The notes under the pieces are model-generated. The model ran no database searches, was not told where the DNA came from, and saw only the letters and a program-made list of their open reading frames with translations. The position numbers and the translations under genes were made by a program. From assembly GCA_017474765.1 (NCBI GenBank), contig JAFVGW010000060.1, positions 1,427 to 65,426 on the forward strand: a stretch of 64,000 nucleotides of DNA, written 5' to 3'. Source of the stretch: Salinivirgaceae bacterium. GTDB taxonomy: Bacteria > Bacteroidota > Bacteroidia > Bacteroidales > SZUA-534. Position 1 is the stretch's first letter. Every line of letters starts with the position of its first letter. This document shows, in pieces, positions 4,872-62,996 of the stretch.

Positions 4872-4943
4872 AGGTACCGAGCGGATTCGAACCGCTGTAA
4901 CAGGTTTTGCAGACCTGCACCTAAGCCTCTCGGTCACGGTACC
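4872..4943 (-). tRNA. tRNA-Cys (GCA)
   Basis: The minus strand reads GGTACCG TG ACCGAGAGGCTTAGGT G CAGGT CTGCAAA ACCTG TTAC AGCGG TTCGAAT CCGCT CGGTACC T. It has a 7-bp acceptor stem, a T-loop TTCGAAT and anticodon GCA. Confidence 0.9.
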
Positions 4944-11363: not shown

Positions 11364-11375
11364 AGGTAATTATTT

Positions 11376-11495
11376 TAGGCAATAGGCAGCAGGCACTAGG
11401 CATTAGGATTTAGTAGCGGCGAGTCTGTCTGTTGTCTGAAGTCCGTTGTCCGTAGTCCAAAAAACTAAACTTCTTACCTTCTAAACTCTAAACCT
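11376..11495 (+). repeat. Modular word-repeat spacer: TAGGCA/TTAGGA block, GTCTGAAGTCC block, CTAAAC block
   Basis: TTAGGCAATAGGCAGCAGGCACTAGGCATTAGGATTTAG lies at 11376-11412. GAGTCTGTCTGTTGTCTGAAGTCCGTTGTCCGTAGTCC lies at 11421-11458. AAAAAACTAAACTTCTTACCTTCTAAACTCTAAACC lies at 11459-11495. Confidence 0.9.
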
Positions 11496-11590
11496 TTCAA
11501 TTCAGCAATAATAATTACTTTTGTAACACGTATGTTGGCTGCCTTGCTAAGGCGCAATGGCAATCAACTTGTCAGAAATACAATGAAATA

Positions 11591-12889: not shown

Positions 12890-12967
12890 GTTATAAGTAG
12901 TAAGTTATAAAAGTTATAAGTTTTTGGATGGAAGATGTCTGTAGTCTGACGTCCGTTGTCTGAAGTC
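12890..12967 (+). repeat. Word-repeat spacer: TTATAAG block then GTCTGAAGTC block
   Basis: GTTATAAGTAGTAAGTTATAAAAGTTATAAGT is followed by GATGTCTGTAGTCTGACGTCCGTTGTCTGAAGTC, then an A-run and the ATG at 12978. Confidence 0.9.
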
Positions 12968-12977
12968 AAAAAAAGAT

Positions 12978-13586: not shown

Positions 13587-14162
13587 CTAAAACTTAAACG
13601 TGAACCCCATATTCAGCAGATGGCCGTTGTTTGCCATAAGCTCGAAGCTGGATGTGGTGTGGTCCGTGTCCTTGTTTTTGGTGTGTGAATAATTAACTCC
13701 CAGCACATTTGCAAAAATGTCGAAATCCCAACGGTCGTTTATTTCGACTGTAAGCACGGGCAGCAACTCAAGCTTGACGCTTCGCTCGCTGTCGGCAAAT
13801 CCGAACACCGAGATGGCTTCGGCACCAAAGATTAATCTGCCAGCCTGAAGAATATCATAATGCAGATAAGGCTCTATGGCATAGGCCGATTCCGACTCTG
13901 TGCTTTTGTGGCCGTCTGTCCAAACCGATGTTTTGCTGCGGCTGTAGCCGAACCCCACACCAACTTCCCAGCTTCCCATCACGTATCCAACTGACGGCAC
14001 AACTTCAAAACTGAATGATGACGATTCCTTGTCGCCATTGTTAGCGCTATTTTCCGATACAATGCCAGCGGTTCCGCTAACCACAAACTGTGCGTTAGCT
14101 TCCTTTGTCAGCAACATAATGGCTGCGGCAAAAATTGTTGATGCAAAAAACAGGTTCTTCAT
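13587..14162 (-). CDS. Small outer-membrane beta-barrel protein (porin family-like)
   Basis: It has a signal peptide ending ANAQ, alternating Gly/aromatic beta-strand pattern, and a C-terminal GFTFKF with terminal Phe. Confidence 0.7.
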   Translation of the reverse strand: MKNLFFASTIFAAAIMLLTKEANAQFVVSGTAGIVSENSANNGDKESSSFSFEVVPSVGYVMGSWEVGVGFGYSRSKTSVWTDGHKSTESESAYAIEPYLHYDILQAGRLIFGAEAISVFGFADSERSVKLELLPVLTVEINDRWDFDIFANVLGVNYSHTKNKDTDHTTSSFELMANNGHLLNMGFTFKF

Positions 14163-14168
14163 ACTTTA

Positions 14169-14345
14169 TTGTTTAATTGGTGAACTGTTTAATCGGTGAA
14201 TCGATTGTTTGACAACGGACTTCAGACAACAGACTGTGGACTCAGCACATTCCTAGTGCCTAATGCCCAGTGCCTAATGCCTAAAATCCAACCTCCAATA
14301 CCATTTACAAATATCTAACTTCCAACTCCTAATACCTACATCCTA
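14169..14345 (-). repeat. Tripartite word-repeat spacer (sense on minus strand): TTAGGAG/TAGGCA block, GTCTGAAGTCC block, GATTCACC..ATTAAACAA block
   Basis: The minus strand reads the TTAGGAGTTAGGATGTAGG...TAGGCATTAGGCAC block at 14345-14251. GAGTCCACAGTCTGTTGTCTGAAGTCCGTTGTC follows at 14246-14209. AAACAATCGATTCACCGATTAAACAGTTCACCAATTAAACAA follows at 14211-14169, 6 nt before the ATG at 14162. Confidence 0.9.
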
Positions 14346-15428
14346 ACTCCTAACTTCCGCTTCCTTCTTCGGGAAAAGCAGCGAGAGCACAATGCTCAGC
14401 GTGATGATCCCCAGAATGACATAGAGCGAGTGCACCGAGCTGAAGCCAATCTCGTCGAGCCAATGATGGAAAAGCAGCTTGGCGCCCACAAAGAGCAGCA
14501 GCACGGCAACGCCCTGTTTCAGATAGCAGAACTTGTCAACCGCGCCCGAGAGCATAAAGAACAGCGACCGCAGTCCGATGATTGCGAAGATGTTCGAGAA
14601 GAACACCACATAGGGGTCGCAAGTGACTGAGAATATGGCGGGTATGCTGTCGAAGGCGAAAATCAGGTCGGTGAACTCAATGGTTATTACCACAATGAGC
14701 AGCGGCGTGATGAAGAGTTTGTGCCGATGGTCGCGGATGAAGAAGCGGCCATTTACATAGCGCGGATAGACGCTGAAATGCTTCGACAGGAACTTCACCA
14801 ACTTATGGTCACGCGGGTCGGCATTGGTATTGTCCTCTTCTTTCTTGAAGAACATTTTCACACCCATGTAAGCCAGATAGACGCCGAAAACGAGCAGAAT
14901 CCAGTTGAACTTCTGAATGAGCGTTGAGCCCAGGAAGATGAATGTGAACCGCAGAACGATGGCGCCCATAATGCCCCAGAAAAGCACAGATTTGTAATCT
15001 TTCTTGCGCACTCCGAAGCCCGTGAGCAGCATCAGCATCACAAAAAGGTTGTCGATGGAGAGCGTCTCCTCAATCAGGTATCCCGAAAGGAAATCGATTG
15101 ACATACTGTGCTGATACTGACTGATGGCCGACTCGATGGTGAGTCCGTTGGCCATAGCCTGCTCGAGCGGCAGCCCGTCGTACTTGAAACTCAGGCCGTA
15201 TTTCTGCGTCACGTGCAGCAGTTCGTCGAACGAGTCGATGCCGTGGACCAGATGGCCGTCGAACCTGAGAAACAGGAAGAACCCGAGCGCTAGCGTCACC
15301 CACACCACCGTCCACACCGAAGCCTCTTTGATGCTTACCACGTGGTGCCCGCGTCCCACGCACAGAAGGTCAAACATCAGCACACCAATAATAAACGCAA
15401 TGAATATCAGCAGAAAAAGATTGTCCAT
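14343..15428 (-). CDS. TerC/Alx family integral membrane protein
   Basis: A 361-aa polytopic protein with the TerC-type motif EETLSIDNLFVMLML and a second repeat EFTDLIFAFDSIPAIF. Confidence 0.85.
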   Translation of the reverse strand: MDNLFLLIFIAFIIGVLMFDLLCVGRGHHVVSIKEASVWTVVWVTLALGFFLFLRFDGHLVHGIDSFDELLHVTQKYGLSFKYDGLPLEQAMANGLTIESAISQYQHSMSIDFLSGYLIEETLSIDNLFVMLMLLTGFGVRKKDYKSVLFWGIMGAIVLRFTFIFLGSTLIQKFNWILLVFGVYLAYMGVKMFFKKEEDNTNADPRDHKLVKFLSKHFSVYPRYVNGRFFIRDHRHKLFITPLLIVVITIEFTDLIFAFDSIPAIFSVTCDPYVVFFSNIFAIIGLRSLFFMLSGAVDKFCYLKQGVAVLLLFVGAKLLFHHWLDEIGFSSVHSLYVILGIITLSIVLSLLFPKKEAEVRS

Positions 15429-23399: not shown

Positions 23400-23485
23400 A
23401 AAAGTACCAATATTTCAAGCTAAAATATCGCAAAAAGTACCGATATTTCAAGTAAATGTTACAGGAAAAGTATTGTTATTTCAAG
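23400..23485. repeat. Three 20-nt direct repeats phased at 33 bp upstream of the ATPase gene
   Basis: AAAAGTACCAATATTTCAAG lies at 23400-23419, AAAAGTACCGATATTTCAAG at 23433-23452, and AAAAGTATTGTTATTTCAAG at 23466-23485. Confidence 0.9.
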
Positions 23486-23529
23486 CCACATTGGGTTTGT
23501 GGCCTTTTTTGAACGCAGATTTAATGTTA

Positions 23530-23615: not shown

Positions 23616-24696
23616 ATGATAACCGGACGAGACGAAGAAAAAAAACTTTTGCAATCGTTGCTCGAAAGCGACAAATCGCAAGGATATTGTTCTGATTGTC
23701 TGTGGAAGCGCCACATCGTGGATTATCAATAAGATAGTGATGAATTATGGCGGATTGCACAACCGCCTGACACGCCAAATCTACATTGAACCGTTCACTC
23801 TGCACGAATGCGAACTATACGCCGAACAACGCAACCTTGGAATGAGTCGGCGCAACATTCTTGAAACCTATATGGTGCTGGGTGGCATACCATTCTATTG
23901 GGACTTTCTGCGCAAAGACCTGTCGTGGGCACAAAACATCGACCATCTTTTCTTCCGAAAAAACGGCGAAATGCGCCGCGAGTTCGACGCCCTCTACTCT
24001 TCGCTGTTTCGCAACCCGCAACCTTACCTCAGAGTGGTTACGGCGATGGGCACCCGAAAGGCCGGAATGACACGCTCTGAGATAATCAACGCGTTGGGCG
24101 AAGACCACGGCGGTACCTTAACACGCACACTTAAAGATTTGGAAGAGTGCGACTTTATCCGCTCGTTCACATCGATTGGAAAGGTAAAAAAGGAAACCAT
24201 CTACCAACTTATTGATAACTTCACGCTGTTCTACTTCAAATTTATGGCCGGCAACACTGGCGGCACCGACTATTGGCTGCAAACAGTGCGCAAACCTGTT
24301 TATAGTGCGTGGAGCGGCCTTGCATACGAGCGTGTCTGCCTGCAACATATCAGACAGATAAAGAAGGCATTAGGCATTTCGGGAATCATAAGCAATGTGT
24401 GCTCGTGGTCGTATCGGCCAAAGGATAGCGATGAAACCGGTGTACAGATTGATATGCTGATTGACCGCGACGACAATGTGATAAACGTGTGCGAGATAAA
24501 ATTCTCGCAAGACGAGTTTGAACTGACATCCGACTATGAACGCAACATAAGGCACAAAGCGAGTGTATTCCAAAGCAAAACCGGTACGCGGAAGGGCGTT
24601 TCGGTGACAATGATAACATCGTATGGCCTGATTAAAAACCAATGGTCGAATGGCATCCAAAACCAACTCACGATGGATGACCTTTTCACTGACTGA
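23616..24696 (+). pseudogene. AAA-ATPase family gene with internal deletion and frameshift (P-loop region missing)
   Basis: The ATG at 23616 gives MITGRDEEKKLLQSLLESDKSQ and then runs to a stop. The +1 frame, open from 23623, reads DIVLIVCGSATSWIINKIVMNYGGLHNRLTRQIYIEPFTLHECE... and continues to 24696. No GxxxxGK[ST] Walker A motif is present anywhere. The ORF track only sees 23737..24696. Confidence 0.7.
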
Positions 24697-24766: not shown

Positions 24767-25016
24767 TTTTATGTATTCATTATCTATATCACTGATTAAC
24801 AGCGCGTTTATTTGGCATTATTTATGTAATGTCCCGCAACAATGTCCGCTCCTCGCCGCCTGCAGATACGTGGCGCGCCGCGTCTCTACGTTTGGTGCAC
24901 CCGATTTTAACCCTGCAAGACCGCCAACCACGTCTTATTTTCGCACAATCCCAATTACTATCGGGGAACACAGTTTTTTGAACGCAGATGATGCCATATT
25001 TTATGATTATTCGGAA

Positions 25017-30238: not shown

Positions 30239-30249
30239 TTTCTTGCTTG

Positions 30250-30382
30250 AGTAAAGTGTAATTTTAATGAGTAATGTTCAATGAGTAAAGTGTAATGTTT
30301 AATGAGTTTCAGCATTGGTAATTATAATTCCTAAATCCTAAATTCTAACTCCTAACTTCTAATTCCTAAATCCTAAATCAAA
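30250..30382 (-). repeat. Word-repeat spacer (sense on minus strand): TTAGGA block then ACATTAC/CTCATT block
   Basis: The minus strand reads GATTTAGGATTTAGGAATTAGAAGTTAGGAGTTAGAATTTAGGATTTAGGAATT. It continues with ...CTCATTAAACATTACACTTTACTCATTGAACATTACTCATTAAAATTACACTTTACTC up to the lptE start. Confidence 0.9.
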
Positions 30383-30387
30383 AATCC

Positions 30388-38579: not shown

Positions 38580-38748
38580 GTTATAAGTGATAGTTAGGAA
38601 TTAGGATTTAGAAATTAGGATTGAAAAGAGAAAGTTTAGAAGTTAAGAAGTTGAGAATGGTTAGTTATCTAAACAGCGAAGCGACTCACCTTCTCAACAG
38701 CGAAGCGACTCACCTTTTAAACGATTCACCGATTCACCAATTAAACAA
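38580..38748 (+). repeat. Word-repeat spacer inside the trp operon: TTATAAG/TTAGGA block, GTTTAGAAG block, 2x AACAGCGAAGCGACTCACCTT, GATTCACC..ATTAAACAA block
   Basis: Direct 21-nt copies lie at 38672-38692 and 38696-38716. The pre-start block AAACGATTCACCGATTCACCAATTAAACAA ends 8 nt before the trpG ATG. Confidence 0.92.
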
Positions 38749-38756
38749 CAGAAAAT

Positions 38757-39320
38757 ATGAAAGTTACAATTATAGACAATTACGATTCGTTCACCTACAA
38801 CCTTTGCCAGATGATTGAGGAGGCGGGTGCCGATGTTACGGTTGTGCGAAACGACCAGTTTGAAATGAGCCAACTTGCTGATGCTGACAAGATTGTGCTG
38901 TCGCCAGGACCAGGCATTCCGTCGGAGGCGGGGCTGCTCACCGAAGTTATCAGAACCTACGCCGACAAAAAGCCGATTTTGGGCGTTTGCCTTGGCCACC
39001 AGGCAATTGGCGAGGTGTTCGGCTGCCAGTTGCGCAACCTGAGCAATGTTTTCCACGGCGTTCAGTCGCCCGTCGATATTGTTGCCGACGACTACCTTTT
39101 CAGCGGCCTGCCAAAGCAACTCATTGTTGGGCGTTATCATTCGTGGGTGATTGATAGTGAGGGCTTTGCGCCCGACCTTGTGATTACCGCCAAGAGCAAG
39201 GAAGGCAACATTATGGCCGTGCGCCACAAGGAGTTCGACGTTCACGGAATCCAGTTCCACCCCGAGTCGGTGCTCACACCAGGCGGGCGGAGAATTATCG
39301 AAAACTTTATAAACCATTAA
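38757..39320 (+). CDS. trpG: Anthranilate synthase component II (glutamine amidotransferase)
   Basis: It has the GATase-I catalytic motifs GVCLGHQAIG and GIQFHPES. Confidence 0.94.
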   Translation: MKVTIIDNYDSFTYNLCQMIEEAGADVTVVRNDQFEMSQLADADKIVLSPGPGIPSEAGLLTEVIRTYADKKPILGVCLGHQAIGEVFGCQLRNLSNVFHGVQSPVDIVADDYLFSGLPKQLIVGRYHSWVIDSEGFAPDLVITAKSKEGNIMAVRHKEFDVHGIQFHPESVLTPGGRRIIENFINH

Positions 39321-40329: not shown

Positions 40330-40424
40330 AAAATAAACTAATTATCTCTAACCAAACGAACCCAAATAAAACCAAAAAATGAATTGGGGTTAGTTTGGAT
40401 AAGTTTGGTTAGAAATAAATTATA

Positions 40425-41984: not shown

Positions 41985-41990
41985 TAATCG

Positions 41991-42120
41991 CACAGATAAC
42001 ACAGATGACACAGATTTATGACATAAGACAATTGACAACAAATTTCGACTCAAATTCGTCCGTAGTCTGTAGTCTGATGTCCGAAGTCAAAAAACTAAAC
42101 TCTAAACACTAAACATTTAA
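41991..42120 (+). repeat. Word-repeat spacer inside the trp operon: CACAGAT block, GTCCGTAGTCTG block, CTAAAC block
   Basis: CACAGATAACACAGATGACACAGATTTATGACATAAGACAATTGACAAC lies at the 5' end. TTCGTCCGTAGTCTGTAGTCTGATGTCCGAAGTC lies at 42055-42088. AAAAAACTAAACTCTAAACACTAAAC precedes the trpA ATG. Confidence 0.9.
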
Positions 42121-42124
42121 CAAT

Positions 42125-43316: not shown

Positions 43317-44993
43317 TTAATCTAACTCGCTGATTTTCTTTCTAATCCGTTCGCGCTCCGATTGCTTTGGAATCGATTTTCGCAAAGCCGTTTCCCAATA
43401 TTGTCGGGCAGTGGCTGCGTCGGATTGCGAGTAGTAGTAATCGCCCAGAATTTCGTAAGTGGCGAATAATCCAGGATTAAGTTGCTCAAATTCATTGAGT
43501 TTGGCATTGTCAATGGTTTGCGCTTGCGCGATGGCTGCGCGGAACTCATGAGTGAGCCGTTTGATGCGGAAAATGTCGTCAATCGGCACGGTTGTGTCGG
43601 CGGGGATAGATAGTTGTGAATCAGTGATTTCGCTGCTGAAACTAGCCTTGACGCTGAAGATTTTGGCCAAATCGTACGCCACATATTGCCCAGCCTGCCA
43701 CGGCGATGTTGAAACCCACATTATCAGTCGGTTAGCATCGAAAACCACCGAATGATGGCCTATGAACTGGTTCAGAGCAGCCTCGTTTGTCCATCCGATA
43801 ATGCTGTCGTTCAGTCCTTTATGGTCGCGTAAGATTGAAACAGCATCGGCAGCGTCAATCGGAAATTTGCGGTGCAGAAGTTGGCTGATGCGTTTCAGAC
43901 GGTAGGGGCTGTCCGAAGTGGAAATATTCTCAATGTTGCGCGGGTCGTCGGCAAAAGCATCTGACTGATAATGATTTGTGCTGATGATGAACGATGAGTC
44001 GGTGGTGAAAAGCGCGGTTATTTCGGGCGACTTTTCAATCACAGCGGCGCGGCCGTCGGAAGCCGAGCCAATCAGTATCGACTCCGAAACAAATGTTTTG
44101 TGGCGGTTGGCGATGGCAATGGCCTCGTCGATGGTTGAGGCGTATTGCAGAATCTCGCGGGTGAGAATGGAGATTGGCGTTGCCGACGAGGTTGGCATGG
44201 CCGATTTGGCGGCGTTGATGGTGACAGTGAGCCCAGTTTCGTTCATGCCCGACATCACTCCAATCATTCCTGGCCAACTGATTGACGCAAAGCGATATCC
44301 GTTGTCGGGAGAGCAGAACACAACCACGCGGTTGCGGGCAAAATCATCGCCAATGTAGAAATCGAAATTGCGGCCGACAATCAGGTTGCCGTTGGCGCTG
44401 CACGTGTCCCACGCGGCAAACGAACTGCACCCAACGAGCATGTAATCCTGCATGGCGTGGCCGATGTCGTGCGCCGAATGGTAGTTCATCTGCCGCTCAT
44501 ACGGCTCGCAAACAAAGTTGAAATCGTCTGAACATGAGAGCGATAGGCCGTAAATTTCCTCGCGGAACTCCTCGCCGATGTATTTGCCCAGCGAGTGGTT
44601 GAACATTAGCGTCAGATGGCGCAGAAATTTCAGGTACGATTCCGATGGTACAAATGACCGAATCTGGTCAACAAAAATCTGTTCCTGCTCATACAGAAGG
44701 TCTTGCGCCAGTTTGCCGTAAGCCTCGCCGCGTTCAAACGGGCTTCCGCCGATTTTCATCTCCCAAAGTCCGCTGCGGCCAAGTCGCAGAGTGTCAGCGC
44801 CATAAGTGCGGAGACTGTCGCCGATTTTTTCAATTTGCCTGTCAACAGGCTCAAAACCAACGGGTTTTTTGAAGTCGGCCGTCAGGTAGAGATAGACGAA
44901 TGCGATGAACGGAATGAGCGCAACCGCCAGAATCAGGCAGCCGATGATAAGGCCAATCTTGCCAATCCGTTTCAGTATTTTGCTCATTTCCAA
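43317..44993 (-). CDS. C45-family Ntn hydrolase / acyl-CoA:6-APA acyltransferase-like protein with N-terminal membrane anchor
   Basis: A 558-aa protein with one N-terminal transmembrane helix. The GCSSFAAWD...GRNFDFYIGD...SISWPGMIGVMSGMNETGLTVTINA pattern is typical of choloylglycine-hydrolase/C45 folds. Confidence 0.75.
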   Translation of the reverse strand: MEMSKILKRIGKIGLIIGCLILAVALIPFIAFVYLYLTADFKKPVGFEPVDRQIEKIGDSLRTYGADTLRLGRSGLWEMKIGGSPFERGEAYGKLAQDLLYEQEQIFVDQIRSFVPSESYLKFLRHLTLMFNHSLGKYIGEEFREEIYGLSLSCSDDFNFVCEPYERQMNYHSAHDIGHAMQDYMLVGCSSFAAWDTCSANGNLIVGRNFDFYIGDDFARNRVVVFCSPDNGYRFASISWPGMIGVMSGMNETGLTVTINAAKSAMPTSSATPISILTREILQYASTIDEAIAIANRHKTFVSESILIGSASDGRAAVIEKSPEITALFTTDSSFIISTNHYQSDAFADDPRNIENISTSDSPYRLKRISQLLHRKFPIDAADAVSILRDHKGLNDSIIGWTNEAALNQFIGHHSVVFDANRLIMWVSTSPWQAGQYVAYDLAKIFSVKASFSSEITDSQLSIPADTTVPIDDIFRIKRLTHEFRAAIAQAQTIDNAKLNEFEQLNPGLFATYEILGDYYYSQSDAATARQYWETALRKSIPKQSERERIRKKISELD

Positions 44994-45002
44994 ATAAATT
45001 CA

Positions 45003-45083
45003 ATTCTTCAACCATTCGGTTATTCAACCCTTCAATCCTTCAGTCCTTCAGTCCTTCAATCCTTCAGTTATTCAATCCATCAA
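45003..45083 (-). repeat. Word-repeat spacer (sense on minus strand): TGAAGGA/TTGAA block
   Basis: The minus strand reads GGATTGAATAACTGAAGGATTGAAGGACTGAAGGACTGAAGGATTGAAGGGTTGAATAACCGAATGGTTGAAGAATTGAA. It lies between the oxidoreductase stop and the C45 start. Confidence 0.9.
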
Positions 45084-48335: not shown

Positions 48336-48385
48336 TTCTGTCTTTCAGTTAATCAATCCGTCAGTCCTTCAGTTCAGTCCTTCAA
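48336..48385 (-). repeat. Word-repeat spacer (sense on minus strand): TGAAGGACTGA block after the dtd stop
   Basis: The minus strand reads CTAATTGAAGGACTGAACTGAAGGACTGACGGATTGATTAACTGAAAGACAG. Confidence 0.85.
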
Positions 48386-48841: not shown

Positions 48842-49057
48842 TTGTATTTTGTTTAATCGTTTAACTGGTTAATCGGTGAATCGAATTTGTTCGGACGCCA
48901 CAATGTGACGTCCCTACTTATGTCTTATGCCTTTGCGGACGCGATGAATCGCGTCCCTACAAACACCTAACACCTAACACCAAAATCTATTTGCCTTCAT
49001 CGGGCGCGGCACGCCACGTCCCTACTTGTCACTTTTACCTTGTAACTTGTCACTTCC
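48842..49057 (-). repeat. Composite spacer: AAGTGACAAG words, three GTAGGGACG-type hairpin units, GGTGTTAGGTG words, GATTCACC..ATTAAACAA pre-start block
   Basis: CGTCCCTAC lies at 48909-48917, 48952-48960 and 49017-49025 on the plus strand. An 8-bp hairpin GGACGCGA-TGAA-TCGCGTCC lies at 48937-48956. The minus-strand block CGATTCACCGATTAACCAGTTAAACGATTAAACAA ends 7 nt before the dtd ATG. Confidence 0.9.
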
Positions 49058-53544: not shown

Positions 53545-56500
53545 ATGAAACGCATTTTCACACTATTGTTTGCCGCGATGCTTGCTGGGCAGGCTTGGGC
53601 ACAGACTACTTTCACCGTCAACAATCTGGAATACACCATTATCGAAGGCACAACCAATGTCACGATTGGCACTACTGGCGAAGAACTACCAGCAGACCTT
53701 GTTATTCTGTCGGAAGTAACGAATGGAGGCATAACCTATACGGTTACTGGTTTTAGTGAATTTGCATTTCAGAATTGTAACTATCTGAAAACAGTTGCAA
53801 TTCCCAATACATTTACAAGCATTGGTGAATTTGCATTTCAAAAATGCCACAGCCTCGAATCAGTTGACATTCCTAATAGTGTTACCATCATTGGAGAAAG
53901 AGCGTTTGAACAGTGTGAAAAGCTTGCATCAGTCACGCTCCCCGACCATTTAACTGAAATATGTAATCTCGCATTCGACAATTGTACAGGGCTGACAAAC
54001 TTAATAATACCCATTTCAGTCACAACCATTTCCAGCAACGCTTTTTATCGCTGTAGTAACATCAGCTTTTATTGCGAGGTGGAGGAAGAATCAGAACCTG
54101 CAGGCTGGGGAAACAACTGGGACAAAGGTAGGCCTATTGTTTGGGGCTACAACGCCAATCCACAAACGTGGACTGTAACCCTTTCATCCAACAATAACGC
54201 ATACGGCACCGTATCGGGCGGCGGCACTGTAGCCAATGGCTCAACAACAACCATTACTGCAACCCCCGCCGAAGGCTACGTTTTTTTGATGTGGAGCAAC
54301 GAACTGACAACCGCAACTGCGACCATAACAGTTACTTCTGACACAACAATTGTGGCAGAATTTGCAGAAAACAAACCCTTAGTTGCAAGCGAATTGCATT
54401 ACGAAATCACAAGCGACAGTACAGTTAAAGTGGTATTTTCAAATGACTATTGGTATTTCACATCTATTGTAATACCAAACACGACCATTATTGACGGCAA
54501 GGTTTATTCGGTTACTAGCATCCGTGATTATGCTTTCCAGAATTGTAGAAATCTAATATCAGTTGCCATTCCAAATACGGTTACGTACATTGGTGAAAAT
54601 GCATTCTATGGTTGTGACAAACTGACAGATATAAATGTTGAAAGCGGAAACACAAAATACTCATCGGAAGATGCTATTCTGTTTAACTGCGATAAAACAA
54701 CATTAGTGCGTTATCCGTATAATAAAGTCGGTGCATACACCGTTCCTGAATCAGTTACAACCATTGGGGATCTGGCGTTTTACCTATGCGAACAATTGAC
54801 TTCAGTTGTCATTCCTAATTCTGTTGAGCGCATTGAATATGGCGCATTTGAAGGATGTTCAAATCTTGCATCAATATCCATTCCCGAAAGTGTAACGACA
54901 TTGGGGAGCTGTGTATTTCAAACGTGTATAAGTCTGACATCGATAACTATTCCAAATTCTATTACTGAAATTCCATTCTACGGATTCAGAAGTTGTGAAA
55001 ACTTAACCACAATCAGCCTGCCTAACACAATTACAGATGTTGACAATACTGCTTTTGAAGGTTGTGATAAGTTAAAATACAACGAGTATGATAATGGTTT
55101 GTATTTGGGAAACACAGAGAATCCGTATCTTGTACTGATTAAAGCAAAATCAACCAACATTACCTCCTGCGAGATAACCGACAAATGCAAAGTAATTGCT
55201 ACCGGGGCATTCTCTGGTTGCAGCGAACTGACATCAATCACTGTGCCCAATTCAGTTCAAAATATCGGCTGCGGAGCCTTTTCTGGTTGCTCCTCTCTGC
55301 AATCAATGACGTTACCATTTGTGGGCGACCGAAGACACTCCTACACCGATTCCCACCAATATCCTTTCGGTTATATTTTCGGTTACGAAAGTTATGAAGG
55401 TGGTGTCGCAACTTCGCAATGGTACAGATATTACGATAACACCAGTTCTATGGGTAGCACATATTATATACCATCATCATTGAAATCGGTAACTTTAACA
55501 GACTGTGACTATATTCAATATGGAGCCTTTGACGATTGCAGTAATCTGACTTCGATAACCATTCCAACATCTGTAACGCATATAGACGGTAGCGCTTTCA
55601 ATAGTTGTAGCGACAGTCTGACTATTTATTGTGACTTGAAATCGGCACCAAGAGGCTGGGAGCTGTATTCCTACAACATTGTATGGGGCACAGTAGATGT
55701 TGTCGATTCCAACAACGTGGATGCGGCTGGTTTTGCATATAAAATCATCGATGGAACAAGTGCGGAAATTATCGACTATACAGGTTCTGATACTGTAATC
55801 GCAATTCCAAGCACATTTACTAAAAATGGTGTTGAATACACCGTTATTCGCATCGGCGACAATGCTTTCAATTCATACAAGGATATGAAATCTCTAACCA
55901 TACCAAACACAGTCACAAGCATTGGTAATAAAGCATTCTCTAAATGTCATGGCCTTACTTCGGTAGAAATTCCAAATTCTGTAACAACCATCGGCAGCGG
56001 AGCATTTGAGTATTGTTACAACCTGGCTTCGGCCATAATTCCCAATTCTGTAACAAGCATCGGCAACTCTGCGTTCTATAATTGTTACAACCTGACTTCG
56101 GTAGAAATTCCTAATTCGCTTACCAGCATCAGTAATCAAATGTTCTCATATTGCAGCAGGTTATCTTCGATAACCATTCCGAATTCTGTGACAAGCATTG
56201 GTAAAAATGCGTTCTCCTGCTGCAACAACTTAACTACAATTAACATTCCCAATTCAGTCACATGCATTGGTGAGTCGGCGTTCTACGGAAGCGGTTTGAC
56301 AAATATTTCTATTCCTAATTCAGTCACATACATTGACTGGAGAGCATTTAGTGATTGTAATGATCTAACTTTTATTACTATACCAAAATCCGTTGAAAAG
56401 ATGAATTGGAATATTTTCGTTGATTGCCCAAACGTAACAATTTATTGCGAAGCGGAATCTAAACCAGAAGGTTGGGTTGAAGGTTGGAATTCTGACAATT

Positions 56501-59460
56501 GTCCTGTTGTATGGGGCTCGAACATAAATAAGATATTCTATGTGGCTCTGTCAGCCAACAACTATGGGTATGGAAGCGTGGAAGGCGGTGGTGTATCTGT
56601 CGGTAGTTCAATGATGAATATTGTTGCCACCCCAGCTGAAGGCTGCCGTTTTGTGAAATGGAGCAACGGTCTGACAAACGCCACTGAAACCATAACGGTT
56701 ACTTCCGATACTACCCTTGTGGCTGAATTTGAGTTAATTAAATGGAATGTGGCCGTATCGACAAATAACAATGCCTACGGCAATGTGAATGGTGGCGGAA
56801 CTGTTACCGACGGCTCAAAAGTTACAATTACCGCCACACCTGCCAACAGTTGTCGCTTTGTAAAATGGAACAATGGATTGACAAACACCTCCGAAACCAT
56901 AACCGTAACTTCGGACACAACCATTGTGGCAGAGTTTGAATATATTATCTATAGAAAAGTTACCATTTCGTCTAACAACGATTATTATGGTTTTGTTGAT
57001 GGCAGCGGCACTGTTGAAGATGGCAAAACCGTTACAATCACCGCTACGCCAGAATCTGGCCACCATTTTGTGAAATGGAACAACGGGCTGACAAACGCCA
57101 CGGCCACTATAACCGTAACCTCCGACACAACTATTGTGGCTGAATTTGAGAAAGATATAACGTGGAATATAAATCTGTCAGCCAACAACAGCGCGTATGG
57201 CACAGTAGAAGGTGGCTGCAACGTAGCCGATGGCACAACAGTAACCATCACTGCCACACCAAAATCTGGCTACCACTTTGTAAAGTGGAGCAATGGCCTG
57301 ACAACCGACACGGCAACCATAACCGTAACTTCCGACACAACACTTGTGGCTGAATTTGCCGAAGACAAATATTGGACTGTCACTCTTTCTGCTAACATTG
57401 AGCATGGCAGAGTTGATAAAATCAGTGGTTCAAACCTCGATGGCTCAATATTCACGGCTTATGCCTCACCATTCCCCGGTTACAAATTTGTGAAGTGGAG
57501 CAACGGCCTGACAACCGACACCATTTCCATAACTTTAACATCCGACACAACGCTTACGGCGGAGTTTGCCGAGAAAGTTTACGCGGGGACCTGCGGTGAC
57601 GATGCCCGCTGGAGTTTCAGTGTGGCGTCGAAAACCCTAACCATTAGCGGCACAGGTTCAATTGACAAATACAAAACCGTGGATTTGTTCAGCACCGAAG
57701 TCGACAGACCGTGGCAGGATATTGCCGACCAAATAGAAAAAGTGGTCATAGGCGAAGGTATTACCAATTTGGGAAGCTATGCATTCTGCTATTGCAACAA
57801 TCTTGAAGAGGTAAATATTTCGTCAACTTGCAACAGCTACGGTAGCATGTCGTTTGCCAACTGCCCGAATTTGAAGAAGATGGTTGTGGCAGCCAATTCT
57901 GTTTATCAGGCCAACGAATACTGCTTCTCGAATTATGAGACCTGCACTGTGTATGTGCCCGCAGGCAGAGTCGATTACTACAAGAAGGATATAATTTTCG
58001 GAATGTTCTCGAATATTGTCGGCGGCTATACTGTCACCATCGATGACGAAATAAAGAACGGAACGGTTGAGGTTGAAAGCTATATTGTTCCTGAAGGCGG
58101 AACGGTCACCGTAACGCCCATACCCGATGAGGGATACAGCATTGCCGATGTTTATTTCGAAGGCGAATATGGCTATGATTGCTATACAATAAATTCAAAT
58201 AGTCATCAATTCTGGATTGAAAACGTAAGAAGTAACATCGTTGTTAAAGTTGAATTCAGTCGAGAAGGCGATTTCGAGTTTGGTTTCAACTATAAAATCC
58301 TCAGCGACAACACTATTGAAATAAGCAGCTACAAAGGTACTGGCGGTGATGTTATAATTCCTAGCACAGTCATCGACAATGGCGTCGAATATACTGTTAC
58401 ACGTATCGGCGACAATGCTTTCAGCAAAAATAACAGCAACATCGAAACCATAATCATTCCCAACACTGTCACAAGCATCGGCTCCGGAGCCTTCTCAAAT
58501 CTTTATCTGACATCGCTGACCATCCCAAATTCAGTAACAGAGATTGGCGAGGGAGCGTTCTGGTCGATTAAAAACATTGTTTACAAAGGCAATGCCACTG
58601 GCAGTCCGTGGGAAGCCCTGACTGTGAACGGATACATCGATGGAAATTGCATATTTGCCGATGCCGAGAAAACTCACCTGACGGCGTATATCACCAGCCG
58701 CGACAGTATGGAAACAACAATCAACATTCCAGAGTCCGTCATAACCATTGGAGAGAATGCCTTTACCAATGTGTGGGCTAAAAAAATCGATGGTGCTTAC
58801 TATTGGGGCAACGAGGAGAATCCGTATTTGATATTGTGGCACGTAGGTGACTATTCTATAGATAGTGTAATCACATCGTATGAGATAAAAGATGGCTGCA
58901 AATACATATACTACACCGCATTTGCAAATATGGAAAACCTCGAATCGGTAACAATACCTAATTCGGTTGTCAGCATTGGCAAACTTGCATTCTTTGGTTG
59001 CGACAACCTGAAATCGGTTAACATTCCCGATGGTGTTGTGGCAATAGGCGAGGGTGCGTTCTCGAATTGCTACGGTTTGTCTTCCATCACCATTCCTAAA
59101 AGCGTGACCACCATTGATAAATACGCATTTGGTGATTGCGATAATTTGACAATCACTTGCGAGGTTAGTTCAAAACCCGAAGGCTGGGACAACGAATGGA
59201 ATTCGCCAAGCAGCACGGTTAATTGGGCAGAAATAGATGTGGCCATCGCCGAAACGGCTGCCAACGCCGTCAGCATCTACGCCCACGGCAACACCATCAT
59301 TGTTGAGAACGCCACCGAAGAAATCCGCGTTTATGATGCAATGGGCAGTATGATTGGTAGGGACGCGATTAATCGCGTCCGTACAGAAATACGCATCAAC
59401 ACCGCCGGCATTTACCTTGTAAAGGTTGGCAGTGTGGCCAAACGGGTTATGGTGAATTGA
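53545..59460 (+). CDS. Giant surface protein: BspA-type leucine-rich repeats + InlB B-repeat (Listeria-Bacteroides repeat) domains + T9SS C-terminal sorting domain
   Basis: A 1971-aa protein with signal peptide MKRIFTLLFAAMLAGQAWAQ. It has dozens of ~23-aa units of the form IPNSVTSIGxxAFxxCxxLTS and six ~70-aa B-repeats ending TSDTTxVAEF. The C-terminus, IRVYDAMGSMI...GIYLVKVGSVAKRVMVN, is typical of type A T9SS CTDs. Confidence 0.9.
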   Translation: MKRIFTLLFAAMLAGQAWAQTTFTVNNLEYTIIEGTTNVTIGTTGEELPADLVILSEVTNGGITYTVTGFSEFAFQNCNYLKTVAIPNTFTSIGEFAFQKCHSLESVDIPNSVTIIGERAFEQCEKLASVTLPDHLTEICNLAFDNCTGLTNLIIPISVTTISSNAFYRCSNISFYCEVEEESEPAGWGNNWDKGRPIVWGYNANPQTWTVTLSSNNNAYGTVSGGGTVANGSTTTITATPAEGYVFLMWSNELTTATATITVTSDTTIVAEFAENKPLVASELHYEITSDSTVKVVFSNDYWYFTSIVIPNTTIIDGKVYSVTSIRDYAFQNCRNLISVAIPNTVTYIGENAFYGCDKLTDINVESGNTKYSSEDAILFNCDKTTLVRYPYNKVGAYTVPESVTTIGDLAFYLCEQLTSVVIPNSVERIEYGAFEGCSNLASISIPESVTTLGSCVFQTCISLTSITIPNSITEIPFYGFRSCENLTTISLPNTITDVDNTAFEGCDKLKYNEYDNGLYLGNTENPYLVLIKAKSTNITSCEITDKCKVIATGAFSGCSELTSITVPNSVQNIGCGAFSGCSSLQSMTLPFVGDRRHSYTDSHQYPFGYIFGYESYEGGVATSQWYRYYDNTSSMGSTYYIPSSLKSVTLTDCDYIQYGAFDDCSNLTSITIPTSVTHIDGSAFNSCSDSLTIYCDLKSAPRGWELYSYNIVWGTVDVVDSNNVDAAGFAYKIIDGTSAEIIDYTGSDTVIAIPSTFTKNGVEYTVIRIGDNAFNSYKDMKSLTIPNTVTSIGNKAFSKCHGLTSVEIPNSVTTIGSGAFEYCYNLASAIIPNSVTSIGNSAFYNCYNLTSVEIPNSLTSISNQMFSYCSRLSSITIPNSVTSIGKNAFSCCNNLTTINIPNSVTCIGESAFYGSGLTNISIPNSVTYIDWRAFSDCNDLTFITIPKSVEKMNWNIFVDCPNVTIYCEAESKPEGWVEGWNSDNCPVVWGSNINKIFYVALSANNYGYGSVEGGGVSVGSSMMNIVATPAEGCRFVKWSNGLTNATETITVTSDTTLVAEFELIKWNVAVSTNNNAYGNVNGGGTVTDGSKVTITATPANSCRFVKWNNGLTNTSETITVTSDTTIVAEFEYIIYRKVTISSNNDYYGFVDGSGTVEDGKTVTITATPESGHHFVKWNNGLTNATATITVTSDTTIVAEFEKDITWNINLSANNSAYGTVEGGCNVADGTTVTITATPKSGYHFVKWSNGLTTDTATITVTSDTTLVAEFAEDKYWTVTLSANIEHGRVDKISGSNLDGSIFTAYASPFPGYKFVKWSNGLTTDTISITLTSDTTLTAEFAEKVYAGTCGDDARWSFSVASKTLTISGTGSIDKYKTVDLFSTEVDRPWQDIADQIEKVVIGEGITNLGSYAFCYCNNLEEVNISSTCNSYGSMSFANCPNLKKMVVAANSVYQANEYCFSNYETCTVYVPAGRVDYYKKDIIFGMFSNIVGGYTVTIDDEIKNGTVEVESYIVPEGGTVTVTPIPDEGYSIADVYFEGEYGYDCYTINSNSHQFWIENVRSNIVVKVEFSREGDFEFGFNYKILSDNTIEISSYKGTGGDVIIPSTVIDNGVEYTVTRIGDNAFSKNNSNIETIIIPNTVTSIGSGAFSNLYLTSLTIPNSVTEIGEGAFWSIKNIVYKGNATGSPWEALTVNGYIDGNCIFADAEKTHLTAYITSRDSMETTINIPESVITIGENAFTNVWAKKIDGAYYWGNEENPYLILWHVGDYSIDSVITSYEIKDGCKYIYYTAFANMENLESVTIPNSVVSIGKLAFFGCDNLKSVNIPDGVVAIGEGAFSNCYGLSSITIPKSVTTIDKYAFGDCDNLTITCEVSSKPEGWDNEWNSPSSTVNWAEIDVAIAETAANAVSIYAHGNTIIVENATEEIRVYDAMGSMIGRDAINRVRTEIRINTAGIYLVKVGSVAKRVMVN
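56533..57575 (+). repeat. Five tandem ~210-nt coding repeats (B-repeat domains) within the LRR gene
   Basis: Each unit runs from ...SxNNxxYGxVxGGG to GLTxxTxTITVTSDTTxVAEF. Long shared nucleotide stretches occur, for example ACCATAACCGTAACTTCCGACACAAC. An isolated sixth copy lies at ~54166-54372. Confidence 0.9.
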
Positions 59461-62839: not shown

Positions 62840-62994
62840 TTTGAGTTTTAAGTTTTAGAAGTTTTAGGTTATAAGTTTAGAAGGTTGAGAGAGTTGAGAG
62901 AGTTTAGAAAATTTAACTAAACAGCGAAGCGCTAAACCTTCTCAACAGCGAAGCGCTAAACTATAAACGATTCACCAATTAAACGATTAAACAA
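62840..62994 (+). repeat. Word-repeat spacer: GTTTTAG/GTTTAGAAGG/TTGAGAG block, 2x AACAGCGAAGCGCTAAAC, GATTCACC..ATTAAACAA block
   Basis: It has the same block order as the trpE-trpG spacer, and its pre-start block AAACGATTCACCAATTAAACGATTAAACAA ends 2 nt before the yggS ATG. Confidence 0.92.
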
Positions 62995-62996
62995 CT

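Follow-up and report, generated by a model that had tools for sequence, protein, structure and literature searches.

The window analysed here is a 64-kb stretch of DNA from a Salinivirgaceae bacterium (contig JAFVGW010000060.1) in which terC is followed, on the minus strand, by the gene of a 191-aa protein, the two genes being separated by a 180-nt spacer (14163-14342). An earlier reading of the same DNA, made from its letters alone and hereafter called the original prediction, named the 191-aa protein 'OMP' and held that this spacer, along with several others of the window, is built from a fixed vocabulary of short words in a fixed order and orientation relative to transcription. The protein itself (13587-14162) gave no match in NCBIfam or Pfam. 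The spacers are the subject of this analysis; they consist of degenerate tandem arrays of short units, and the array pattern is far beyond chance. The strain group of the window is covered by eight independent assemblies at 99.3-100% identity, and in 8/8 of them the sequence of the terC-OMP spacer is the same and the 191-aa protein is unchanged.

Three classes of words are distinguished, namely A words (TTAGGA/TAGGCA-type), the B word (GTCYGWW; TCYGWWGTC) and C words (CTAAAC, ATTAAAC and the GATTCACC-type). Tandem arrays were called with Tandem Repeats Finder (TRF), which gave periods of 7, 14, 16 and 21 nt in the terC-OMP spacer. Read in the direction of transcription, this spacer comprises the blocks A1, A2, B and C (Table 1). 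Block A1, in which TTAGGAGTTAGGA was matched at 14341-14353, had been placed after the terC stop codon; it opens inside the gene, the final three codons and the TAG stop (14345-14343) being units of the GTTAGGA array. The C-terminus of terC has been rewritten by this array, which provides its stop codon (14343-14355). The word run of block B recurs at 11428-11457, 12938-12967 and 42059-42088. Block C contains a match to GATTCACCGATT and its array ends 6 nt upstream of the ATG at 14162; blocks of the same type sit ahead of the starts at 38757, 48841 and 62997, and the C-type arrays of the window end 2-16 nt before the ATG.

Table 1. Genes, blocks and word spacers of the window (ORF, open reading frame; REP, repetitive extragenic palindromic)
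Feature	Position	Strand	Content or evidence
terC, TerC/Alx family membrane protein	14343..15428	-	NCBIfam TIGR03718, E = 2e-96; Pfam TerC in contig annotation
191-aa protein ('OMP')	13587..14162	-	ORF list
Block A1, 79-nt C-free run, GTTAGGA/GTTGGAA/GTAGGTA-type heptamers	14280..14358	-	TRF period 7 and 21 at 14310-14355
Block A2, (TTAGGCA) x4.7	14252..14284	-	TRF period 7 and 14
Block B, (GTCYGWW) heptamer array, TCCACAGTCTGTTGTCTGAAGTCCGTTGTC	14211..14240	-	Three overlapping TCYGWWGTC matches
Block C, G-poor octamer array (GATTCACC/GATTAAAC/AGTTCACC), AAACAATCGATTCACCGATTAAACAGTTCACCAATTAAACAA	14169..14210	-	TRF period 16 x1.9 at 14170-14200
Divergent spacer GT2 glycosyltransferase/flxY	11364..11590		+ strand: A (TAGGCA), B, C (CTAAAC) arrays, then TAnnTTTG promoter-like motif
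Spacer flxY/198-aa gene	12890..12977	+	GTTATAAG array, then B array, then A-run
Spacer sigma-54 activator/lptE	30239..30387	-	(TTAGGA/TTAGAA) x9, then CATTAAAC/CTTTACT units
Spacer trpE-trpG	38580..38756	+	GTTATAAG/TTAGGA/GTTGAGA words, 24-nt unit (CTAAACAGCGAAGCGACTCACCT) x2.3, then GATTCACC units
Spacer trpF-trpA	41985..42124	+	CACAGAT/GACA words (reverse complement-like of B), B array, A-run, CTAAAC array
Spacer FAD oxidase/AAT-family gene	44987..45083	-	(GGAYTGAA) x7.6
TGAAGGA-type array right behind dtd stop, convergent spacer	48336..48385	-	
Spacer TPR protein/dtd	48842..49057	-	GTGACAA and GGTGTTA arrays, three REP-like GC hairpins (TAGGGACG...CGTCC), then GATTCACC/GATTAAAC array
Spacer Aldedh-like gene/yggS	62840..62996	+	Paralogous to 38580-38756 over ~85 nt

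At least eight further spacers are degenerate tandem arrays with a period of 7 or 8 nt and multiples of these, as called by TRF in every cited spacer. Their units abut directly and measure 7-8 nt, up to 24 nt, and the arrays are short as well as degenerate, with 2-9 copies and 70-100% matches. Eight word spacers sit between same-strand genes of ordinary operons, the pairs being flxY and the next gene, terC and the 191-aa gene, the sigma-54 activator and lptE, trpE and trpG, trpF and trpA, the FAD oxidase and the AAT-family gene, the TPR protein and dtd, and the Aldedh-like gene and yggS. Judged by a congener, the AAT-family gene (43317-44993) truly begins at ATG 44986 and not at the TTG 44993 of the ORF list. 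At 11376-11495, where the words had been said to read in the sense of the flanking genes, the spacer is divergent and the assignment of a strand is arbitrary, which leaves that reading ambiguous. Four of eight contigs of other metagenome assemblies stop at 11429-11460, within the B array of this same GT2/flxY spacer, where the heptamer arrays interrupt short-read assemblies.

Dinucleotide-preserving shuffles served as the baseline of chance for word counts. The B word TCYGWWGTC has 18 matches in the window against 3.4 +/- 1.7 in shuffles, 14 of the 18 lying within four spacers, and the excess is larger still for GATTCACCRATT (5 against 0.03) and TTAGRANTTAGRA (10 against 0.02). When different same-strand spacers were compared, 460 8-mers were shared in the same orientation against 273 +/- 24 after shuffling, while sharing in the opposite orientation was at the level of chance (290 against 279). 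Sense:antisense counts in the same-strand spacers of the window were 10:0 for TCYGWWGTC, 10:2 for TTAGGA, 6:0 for the GATTCACC-type and 9:4 for CTAAAC. Order and orientation were then assessed in independent loci of the same genus, from which spacers also found in the window had been subtracted, and gave 17:2 for B words, 19:2 for CTAAAC, 12:2 for ATTAAAC and 15:4 for the GATTCACC-type, with mean relative positions of ~0.2-0.4 for A words, 0.58 for B and 0.71-0.80 for C. The word spacers are thus ordered (C-free, then GTCYGWW, then G-poor) and oriented to transcription, as the original prediction had it.

A polarity of base composition accompanies the words. Summed over the eight word spacers, the first 40 nt contain 83 G and 14 C and the last 40 nt 35 G and 58 C, whereas 17 other same-strand spacers are without polarity (G/C of 109/98 and 82/90, respectively). 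In 78-nt windows the C/G ratio of the post-stop halves lies below the 1st percentile of coding windows in most word spacers, being 0-0.16 in five of the eight, and that of the pre-start halves of three spacers reaches 2-5.7, at about the 99th percentile of coding windows or above. The rule that blocks after stops lack C and blocks before starts are poor in G is therefore borne out by the eight-spacer counts and fails at two loci: 41985-42124 opens with a block that contains C and resembles the reverse complement of B words, and 44987-45083, which had been taken as G-poor before the start, is G-rich right up to ATG 44986. The spacers without a C-rich half are 12890 and 44987. An order of G-rich then C-rich reads alike on both strands, so that polarity of composition alone is no proof of a link with transcription; that link follows from the asymmetry of the words, which is clearest for the B word.

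Several known kinds of element were considered for these spacers. Whole-spacer folds were no better than those of shuffles in four word spacers (z = -0.95 for terC-OMP, and +0.20, -0.26 and -0.49), and the folds of the 41985 and 11364 spacers were likewise insignificant (z = -0.60 and -0.66). The absence of G-C hairpins noted earlier thus holds for the terC spacer and not for 48842-49057, which contains GC hairpins and folds with z = -3.2. G-U pairs would allow block A2 to join block B in a stem, which appears in the centroid fold, and TAGGCA pairs with GTCTG, though not significantly. Among Rfam covariance models the sole match in the window was a tRNA at 4872-4943, and a structured RNA was rejected for the terC spacer since its fold does not exceed shuffles and no Rfam model matches it. 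A hairpin between post-stop and pre-start blocks was rejected on the chance level of 8-mer sharing in opposite orientation.

The same-strand word spacers contain neither the Bacteroidetes -7 motif TAnnTTTG nor a run of six T on the sense strand, while one or both occur in many other spacers of the window, several of which have ordinary hairpin-plus-T terminators. A consensus scan of 14163-14342 and 12890-12977 found no terminator-like site in either and no sigma-70-like site in the terC spacer. A promoter or terminator role was rejected on these grounds, in agreement with the earlier statement that the blocks are not terminators. Equally, the view that they are not CRISPR stands: units of 7-8 nt (up to 24) that abut one another are not repeats of 24-48 nt split by unique spacers. 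A G-quadruplex was ruled out because the A blocks (TTAGGA, TAGGCA, TGAAGGA) have no G-tracts of three or more. To judge from their sequences, the word spacers are largely unstructured intercistronic spacers that are presumably co-transcribed with their neighbours. Predicted pairing at starts that follow word spacers is lower (0.31 against 0.46, p = 0.004), a difference that may merely reflect composition; the proposal of an unstructured leader in an organism that does not use Shine-Dalgarno sites would fit it to that extent.

The turnover of the spacers was followed in relatives. TrpD protein matches at 98-100% identity are named 'MAG: Salinivirgaceae bacterium' (MAG, metagenome-assembled genome), which bears out the original prediction in its placement of the organism among Bacteroidales. 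The trp genes of the window and of loci L213 and L215 are 95-99% identical, and their trpF-trpA spacers measure 140, 128 and 142 nt, respectively; the alleles differ by whole units of 7 and 9 nt, namely a single CACAGATAA, a single GTAGTCT and either one or two copies of ACTAAAC. At trpE-trpG, L213 is longer than the window by one unit of 8 nt. Between L213 and L215 this spacer changes from 184 nt to an unrelated 115 nt, even though trpE is 97.7% identical between the two and the TrpD protein the same, and the L215 spacer uses the same vocabulary, including a CTAAACAGCG(A/T)AGCGAC word inverted within its G-rich half. A second pair with identical TrpD protein (L216 and L218, trpE 97.5% identical) differs at three junctions: trpE-trpG measures 100 against 207 nt, trpD-trpC consists of overlapping genes against a spacer of 232 nt, and trpF-trpA measures 118 against 209 nt. 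In both pairs of strains trpG, like trpE, is ~98% identical although the spacer between the two genes is unrelated. Only the ~15 nt before the trpG ATG (AAACATTTAAAACA) are kept across four divergent spacers. In a relative at ~70% identity all trp junctions are 15-36 nt long (trpE-trpG, 15 nt).

Outside the trp operon, a relative whose TerC is 91% identical (L127) has an unrelated terC-OMP spacer of 104 nt instead of 180 nt and a sigma54-lptE spacer of 9 nt instead of the 149 nt of the window, and in a relative with TerC 81% identical a spacer made of (AAGGCAT)n and then (ATCATTAAACATTT)n is located upstream of terC. Growth in place is seen at 44987-45083, where the 97-nt GGAYTGAA spacer corresponds to 27 nt in a congener with recognisable flanks. 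This expansion from a 27-nt ancestral spacer and the unit-number alleles directly demonstrate what had already been suggested, the footprint of a local duplication process. In a close relative, CAMHPA01 (one gene 97.7% identical), vocabulary and order are as in the window, and locus L107 reads TTAGGA words, GGTGTTA words, TAGGGACGCG hairpin, CTGAAGTCYG words, GATTCACC/GATTAAAC words and ATG. Individual loci are thus replaced within species while the word set persists across genera. The 'fixed' vocabulary is accordingly a stable word set and not a set of stable spacers, which are replaced wholesale within a species; likewise, whether orthologous spacers of close relatives are unrelated is answered by yes at the level of sequence and by no at the level of vocabulary.

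Some modules recur at different junctions. Spacers 38580 and 62840 share a module of ~85 nt, the homology being judged by eye in the alignment, and a 40-nt module (GGTGTTA array and TAGGGACGCG hairpin) is 97.5% identical between the non-orthologous junctions 48842-49057 and L107. An inverted-repeat element TCTAACCAAACGAACCCAAA...GTTTGGATAAGTTTGGTTAGA (hairpin TCTAACCAAAC...GTTTGGTTAGA, C-rich arm first) lies at trpD-trpC in the window (40345-40413) and at trpF-trpA in a congener (L218:12716-12775), being dispersed and of low copy number.

Two smaller elements were noticed within the spacers. The 24-nt unit CTAAACAGCGAAGCG... is found at 38668-38722 and 62916-62960 and also in L009, L039 and L218; it is kept in other Salinivirgaceae MAGs, inverted within the G-rich half of the L215 allele, and contains GCGAAGC, a sequence that forms a very stable mini-hairpin. 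The other is a family of REP-like GC hairpins of the form TAGGGACG(Y)...(R)CGTCC(CTA) or GTAGAGACGYGGCGCGCCRCGTCTCTAC, with copies in the window at 48900-49020 (three), 24860-24890 and 59358 and elsewhere at L107:6489, L044:974-991 and L033:3726; in several related genomes these hairpins are embedded in or beside word spacers.

The wider distribution was explored with a sample chosen blind to the words through TrpD as anchor (80 trp loci of other Bacteroidales, 62-68% TrpD identity, 972 kb) and with a pattern scan for two tandem C-type octamers, one genome per species. In the intergenic DNA of the TrpD-anchored sample, period 7 far outnumbers every other short tandem period, with 69 period-7 arrays in 152 kb of intergenic sequence against 27 in 820 kb of coding sequence. 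The mean relative position of G-rich arrays is 0.34, closer to the upstream stop than that of C-rich ones (0.55, p = 0.002). Median trp junctions in this sample are 15-59 nt long, compared with 177, 95, 114 and 140 nt in the window.

Among these genomes, the trp loci of Bacteroides uniformis (L162-L178), identified by an exact TrpD match, carry heptamer arrays at trp junctions, including GTTATAAGTGATGAGT words that resemble those at 38580. In strains whose trpD is 98-99% identical the trpB-trpE spacer measures 52, 59, 62, 76 or 83 nt, trpG-trpD 49, 64 or 79 nt and trpF-trpA from 156 to 192 nt, the alleles differing by steps of 7, 8 or 15 nt and by inversion of a conserved core (GCCATGCGGCGTACATTGCGCAGCC). 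The trpE-trpG spacer of this species forms a long hairpin in which complementary arrays surround the conserved core (z = -6.6). Two architectures are therefore distinguished, one in which complementary G-form and C-form arrays make hairpins and one of non-complementary mosaics running from A to C words, such as the terC spacer. In Phocaeicola vulgatus (L136-L144) the trpC-trpF junction holds a hairpin made of CACAGATTA words.

The pattern scan returned more than 118 loci from a database in which ~500 single matches would be expected by chance, by our own estimate. Genomes with many loci were the Bacteroidales MAGs RUG243, CAMHPA01, Salinivirgaceae, Paludibacteraceae and Ca. Enterocola. Beyond Bacteroidales, the Acidobacteriota genome AnMBR.bin219 has seven loci (among them L027, L042 and L069) and the longest GATTCACC/GACTCACC runs among the scanned loci, and further hosts with several loci are a Nitrospirae MAG (five contigs; L117, L125), Gemmatimonadaceae (L079, L020) and Desulfonatronovibrio (L013, L034). 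In the distant GC-rich phyla the GATTCACC/GACTCACC arrays are accompanied by heptamers of the CCGTCTC, GGACATC and ACATCTG type, which resemble the B words of the window.

The context of the C-type arrays was compared between sense and antisense directions, with random positions as baseline. In Bacteroidota, 27 of 55 loci have the array at most 60 nt upstream of an ATG that begins an ORF of 100 codons or more, against 6 of 55 in antisense and 20% at random positions; these arrays have no stop codons and lengthen ORFs upstream, and their distance to the start ranges from 1 to 54 nt. Outside Bacteroidota there was no excess of GATTCACC arrays just upstream of ATG (11 against 15 of 76), in genomes whose GC-richness makes detection of starts poor. 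Where both forms occur on one strand within 300 nt, the G-form (GGTGAATC-type) precedes the C-form (GATTCACC-type) in 10 of 10 pairs, five of them from Bacteroidota and five from other phyla including Acidobacteriota, Nitrospirae and Gemmatimonadaceae.

The spacers fit a published and unexplained class of intergenic heptamer simple-sequence arrays. The literature search found no paper on such arrays in Bacteroidales and nothing specific on the exact word or on Bacteroides intergenic repeat elements. The elements that are new to the description are the ordered mosaic of several words and the location in housekeeping operons of a host that does not use Shine-Dalgarno sites. The original prediction could name no repeat family for them; matching families, G/C polarity included, are on record (PMC4692102, PMC4679880). 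Arrays of GGGNATC and GGGGA(C/T)T heptamers in Xanthomonas and Nostoc are over-represented where ORFs are aligned and seldom lie where ORFs diverge, and some of the arrays overlap stop codons; their G-rich strand is the coding one within 50 bp after stops and the non-coding one within 50 bp before starts, and they vary in copy number and sequence among close relatives, have housekeeping neighbours and no identified function (Rehm et al. 2015, PMC4692102). The polarity of G after stops and C before starts, the preference for same-strand pairs and an array that overlaps a stop codon (terC) are met here too, and the reverse complement GATTCCC of the Xanthomonas and Nostoc word resembles the GATTCACC word. 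Unlike those repeats, the units of the window are AT-rich and without GGG runs, so that the G-quadruplex rationale is inapplicable; several word families form an ordered mosaic, 8-nt units are common and the host makes no use of Shine-Dalgarno sites.

Arrays of TAACTGA, in forward orientation just upstream of start codons, occur in Beggiatoaceae, cyanobacteria and five Bacteroidetes, where they are mixed with other heptamers in 'assemblages', show 7-nt indels between strains, are missing in close relatives and break assemblies (MacGregor 2015, PMC4679880). Forward arrays close upstream of start codons are likewise present in the window; it differs in having no tandem TAACTGA (single copies lie within TGAAGGA-type arrays at 45060-45066 and 48340-48350), in its other dominant words and in post-stop arrays that are as prominent as the pre-start ones. 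A broader class is that of long simple sequence repeats with 5-11-nt units, among which, as summarised in a later paper, heptamers are the commonest, slippage was proposed, most copies are intergenic and the phylogenetic distribution is sporadic (Mrazek et al. 2007, via PMC4679880). The present arrays resemble this class in head-to-tail units, non-coding excess, polymorphism of whole units between strains and the dominance of period 7 in Bacteroidales, but they are short and degenerate and might not all pass a criterion of 'longer than expected'. The cyanobacterial STRR (short tandemly repeated repetitive) heptamers are grouped with the long simple sequence repeats.

The REP sequences and bacterial interspersed mosaic elements (BIME) of enterobacteria are intercistronic mosaics of motifs with a set order and orientation to transcription, dispersed over many operons. 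Small vocabularies in ordered intercistronic mosaics, and REP-like GC hairpins in some spacers, are found in the window as well. It differs in its tandem heptamers and octamers and in a terC spacer without palindromic unit or significant fold, and no REP-associated tyrosine transposase (RAYT, Y1) was found among the genes of the window. In the repeats of hmw1A, slippage changes the number of 7-nt copies in the promoter/5' region and grades the expression of a surface adhesin, which makes the gene a contingency locus. Such heptanucleotide repeats upstream of hmw1A are described in Haemophilus influenzae (PMC8262952). The shifts of 7-nt copy number upstream of a gene are common to both cases, whereas the present arrays lie within the operons of housekeeping genes, where an effect of theirs would be hypothetical. 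For Nostoc, heptamer repeats close to recF and recO are reported in a preprint to have modest effects on regulation.

With modest confidence, the arrays are taken to be a slippage-generated, exchangeable filler of co-transcribed spacers whose strand composition is filtered by selection at the mRNA level. Whole units are gained and lost, which is the mark of replication slippage, arrays can grow in place out of short ancestral spacers, and whole spacers are exchanged within a species for other arrays of the same word set, modules recurring at non-orthologous junctions. Particular sequences and copy numbers are not conserved, and strand composition presumably persists: the RNA leaving a gene would be G-rich, C-free and rich in stop codons, and that entering the next gene A/C/U-rich, G-poor and with little structure, its poverty in G also keeping it free of ATG, GTG or TTG. 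Initiation in Bacteroidia relies on low structure and upstream adenines and not on Shine-Dalgarno sites (PMC6847099). The pre-start block could thus act as an unstructured A-rich landing zone, needed because the ribosomes of Bacteroidia ignore Shine-Dalgarno sites. Selection on the mRNA would in this way act on a dispensable, self-expanding filler, and the arrays would at most tune the expression of the downstream cistron.

A number of observations weigh against the slippage-and-filter account. The terC spacer shows no copy-number variation among the eight assemblies of its strain group. Two spacers, 41985 and 44987, break the rule of composition, and the order of G then C is strand-symmetric and occurs also in distant phyla that use Shine-Dalgarno sites; its cause may lie at the level of DNA. 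The B word is G/C-balanced and yet sense-oriented (27:2 overall, adding window and relatives), for which simple G/C filtering is an insufficient explanation. Finally, slippage alone would seed unrelated units at each locus, yet long words (at least 17 nt, and the 24-nt unit) are met again at numerous loci and in further genera; something therefore maintains the vocabulary, either copying between loci or selection for words. Since a filter on composition alone explains neither why the vocabulary persists nor how the B word is oriented, binding factors, BIME-like mosaics and Rho pads stay alive as rivals.

It is unlikely, though deserving of attention, that the spacers are mosaics of small dispersed mobilisable elements, REP/BIME-like or similar to miniature inverted-repeat transposable elements (MITE), which a transposase or ectopic recombination would have spread and of which the tandem arrays are parts. 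The modules described above are what such elements would leave: the ~85-nt module common to 38580 and 62840 (by eye), the 40-nt module at non-orthologous junctions of two genomes, and the hairpin element found at trpD-trpC in the window and at trpF-trpA in L218. Some junctions are filled in one genome and empty in another (149 against 9 nt, and 232 nt against overlapping genes), and the core of B. uniformis, flanked by complementary arrays, occurs in both orientations with a strong fold. Against mobility, the 149/9-nt pair has no target-site duplications or sharp ends, the window contains no gene for a transposase, RAYT or reverse transcriptase, the terC spacer lacks a palindromic core and a significant fold, and the unit-wise alleles and the expansion in situ indicate slippage.

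The words might instead be binding sites of a trans-acting factor (bS1, a cold-shock protein, an RRM-type protein or a single-stranded DNA binder) and define a post-transcriptional regulon or a platform for ribosome standby, a reading considered improbable. A vocabulary conserved across strains, species and genera despite the turnover of loci is as expected of binding sites, and the strong sense orientation of B and C words and the position of C-type arrays within 60 nt of ATG in Bacteroidota (27/55 against 6/55 in antisense) point the same way. A binding factor or standby function was already proposed for the TAACTGA repeats (PMC4679880). What speaks against it is that copy number, words and even the presence of arrays differ among near-identical strains at the trp housekeeping junctions, that the distance from array to start varies between 1 and 54 nt and that no candidate gene is linked within the window. 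To our knowledge, Bacteroidia also lack CsrA, Hfq and ProQ.

It is more doubtful still, and ventured here as speculation, that the vocabulary is kept because it is read, as a widespread insulator (Rho-loading or protein-binding pads for untranslated transcripts entering genes), or that it is the footprint of an array-generating activity of unknown nature that spread horizontally. In Bacteroidales as in Acidobacteriota, Nitrospirae and Gemmatimonadaceae, and in accordance with Xanthomonas and Nostoc, it is invariably the strand rich in C and poor in G that runs into the adjacent gene, a rule that could mark such an insulator system. If that were so, the strain alleles of gut Bacteroides would be tuning knobs of operon expression.

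Rho prefers C-rich, G-poor unstructured RNA. A specific role of the blocks in managing Rho is very unlikely; the C-free RNA after stops would be unable to load it, and the C-rich, G-poor RNA that enters a gene from either side would be rut-like, so that untranslated or antisense transcripts would be terminated unless a ribosome starts. The extreme C/G ratios (0-0.16 after stops, 2-5.7 before starts in three spacers) would suit this scheme, as would its strand-symmetric rule, with the G-form first in 10/10 pairs across phyla and the same polarity in Xanthomonas and Nostoc (PMC4692102). The pre-start blocks, however, are merely 40-80 nt long and adjoin the start, the arrays are dispensable between strains, and spacers 12890 and 44987 have no C-rich half. 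Chance drift of low-complexity sequence or an assembly artefact, which the AT-rich composition and the four contigs of other assemblies that break inside one spacer might have suggested, is refuted by word counts 5 to 500 times those of shuffles, by orientation-specific sharing between spacers, by the identical spacer in eight independent assemblies and by replication of the pattern in independent genomes.

Intergenic arrays of heptamers are known from decades of reports on cyanobacteria, Xanthomonas and Beggiatoaceae, yet neither their function nor what generates them is agreed upon. The present case adds arrays at junctions in housekeeping operons (trp, lptE, dtd) of Bacteroidales, and the turnover of loci under a persistent word set separates the question of which sequence is present from that of what kind of sequence it is. 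B. uniformis is a cultivable and genetically tractable gut species, and since its arrays behave in the same way, the old question becomes accessible to experiment. Should the expression of downstream genes depend on the arrays, strains of gut Bacteroides would differ in expression for a reason so far overlooked; should the arrays have no effect, they would provide a clean example of self-expanding filler shaped by constraints at the mRNA level.

Other repeats of the window were recorded apart from the word spacers. A 21-nt tandem repeat (GAACGGCGGGTTTGACTTAAC, 3.3 copies, 95% identity) lies at 1301-1369 in a long non-coding stretch and is unrelated to the heptamer words, and a 33-nt repeat (AAAAGTACCGATATTTCAAGC..., 2.6 copies) at 23400-23486, in a divergent region upstream of the gene at 23737, could represent binding sites of a regulator. 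The region 53545-59460 encodes a BspA-type leucine-rich-repeat protein of 1971 aa with coding tandem repeats of 69 nt.

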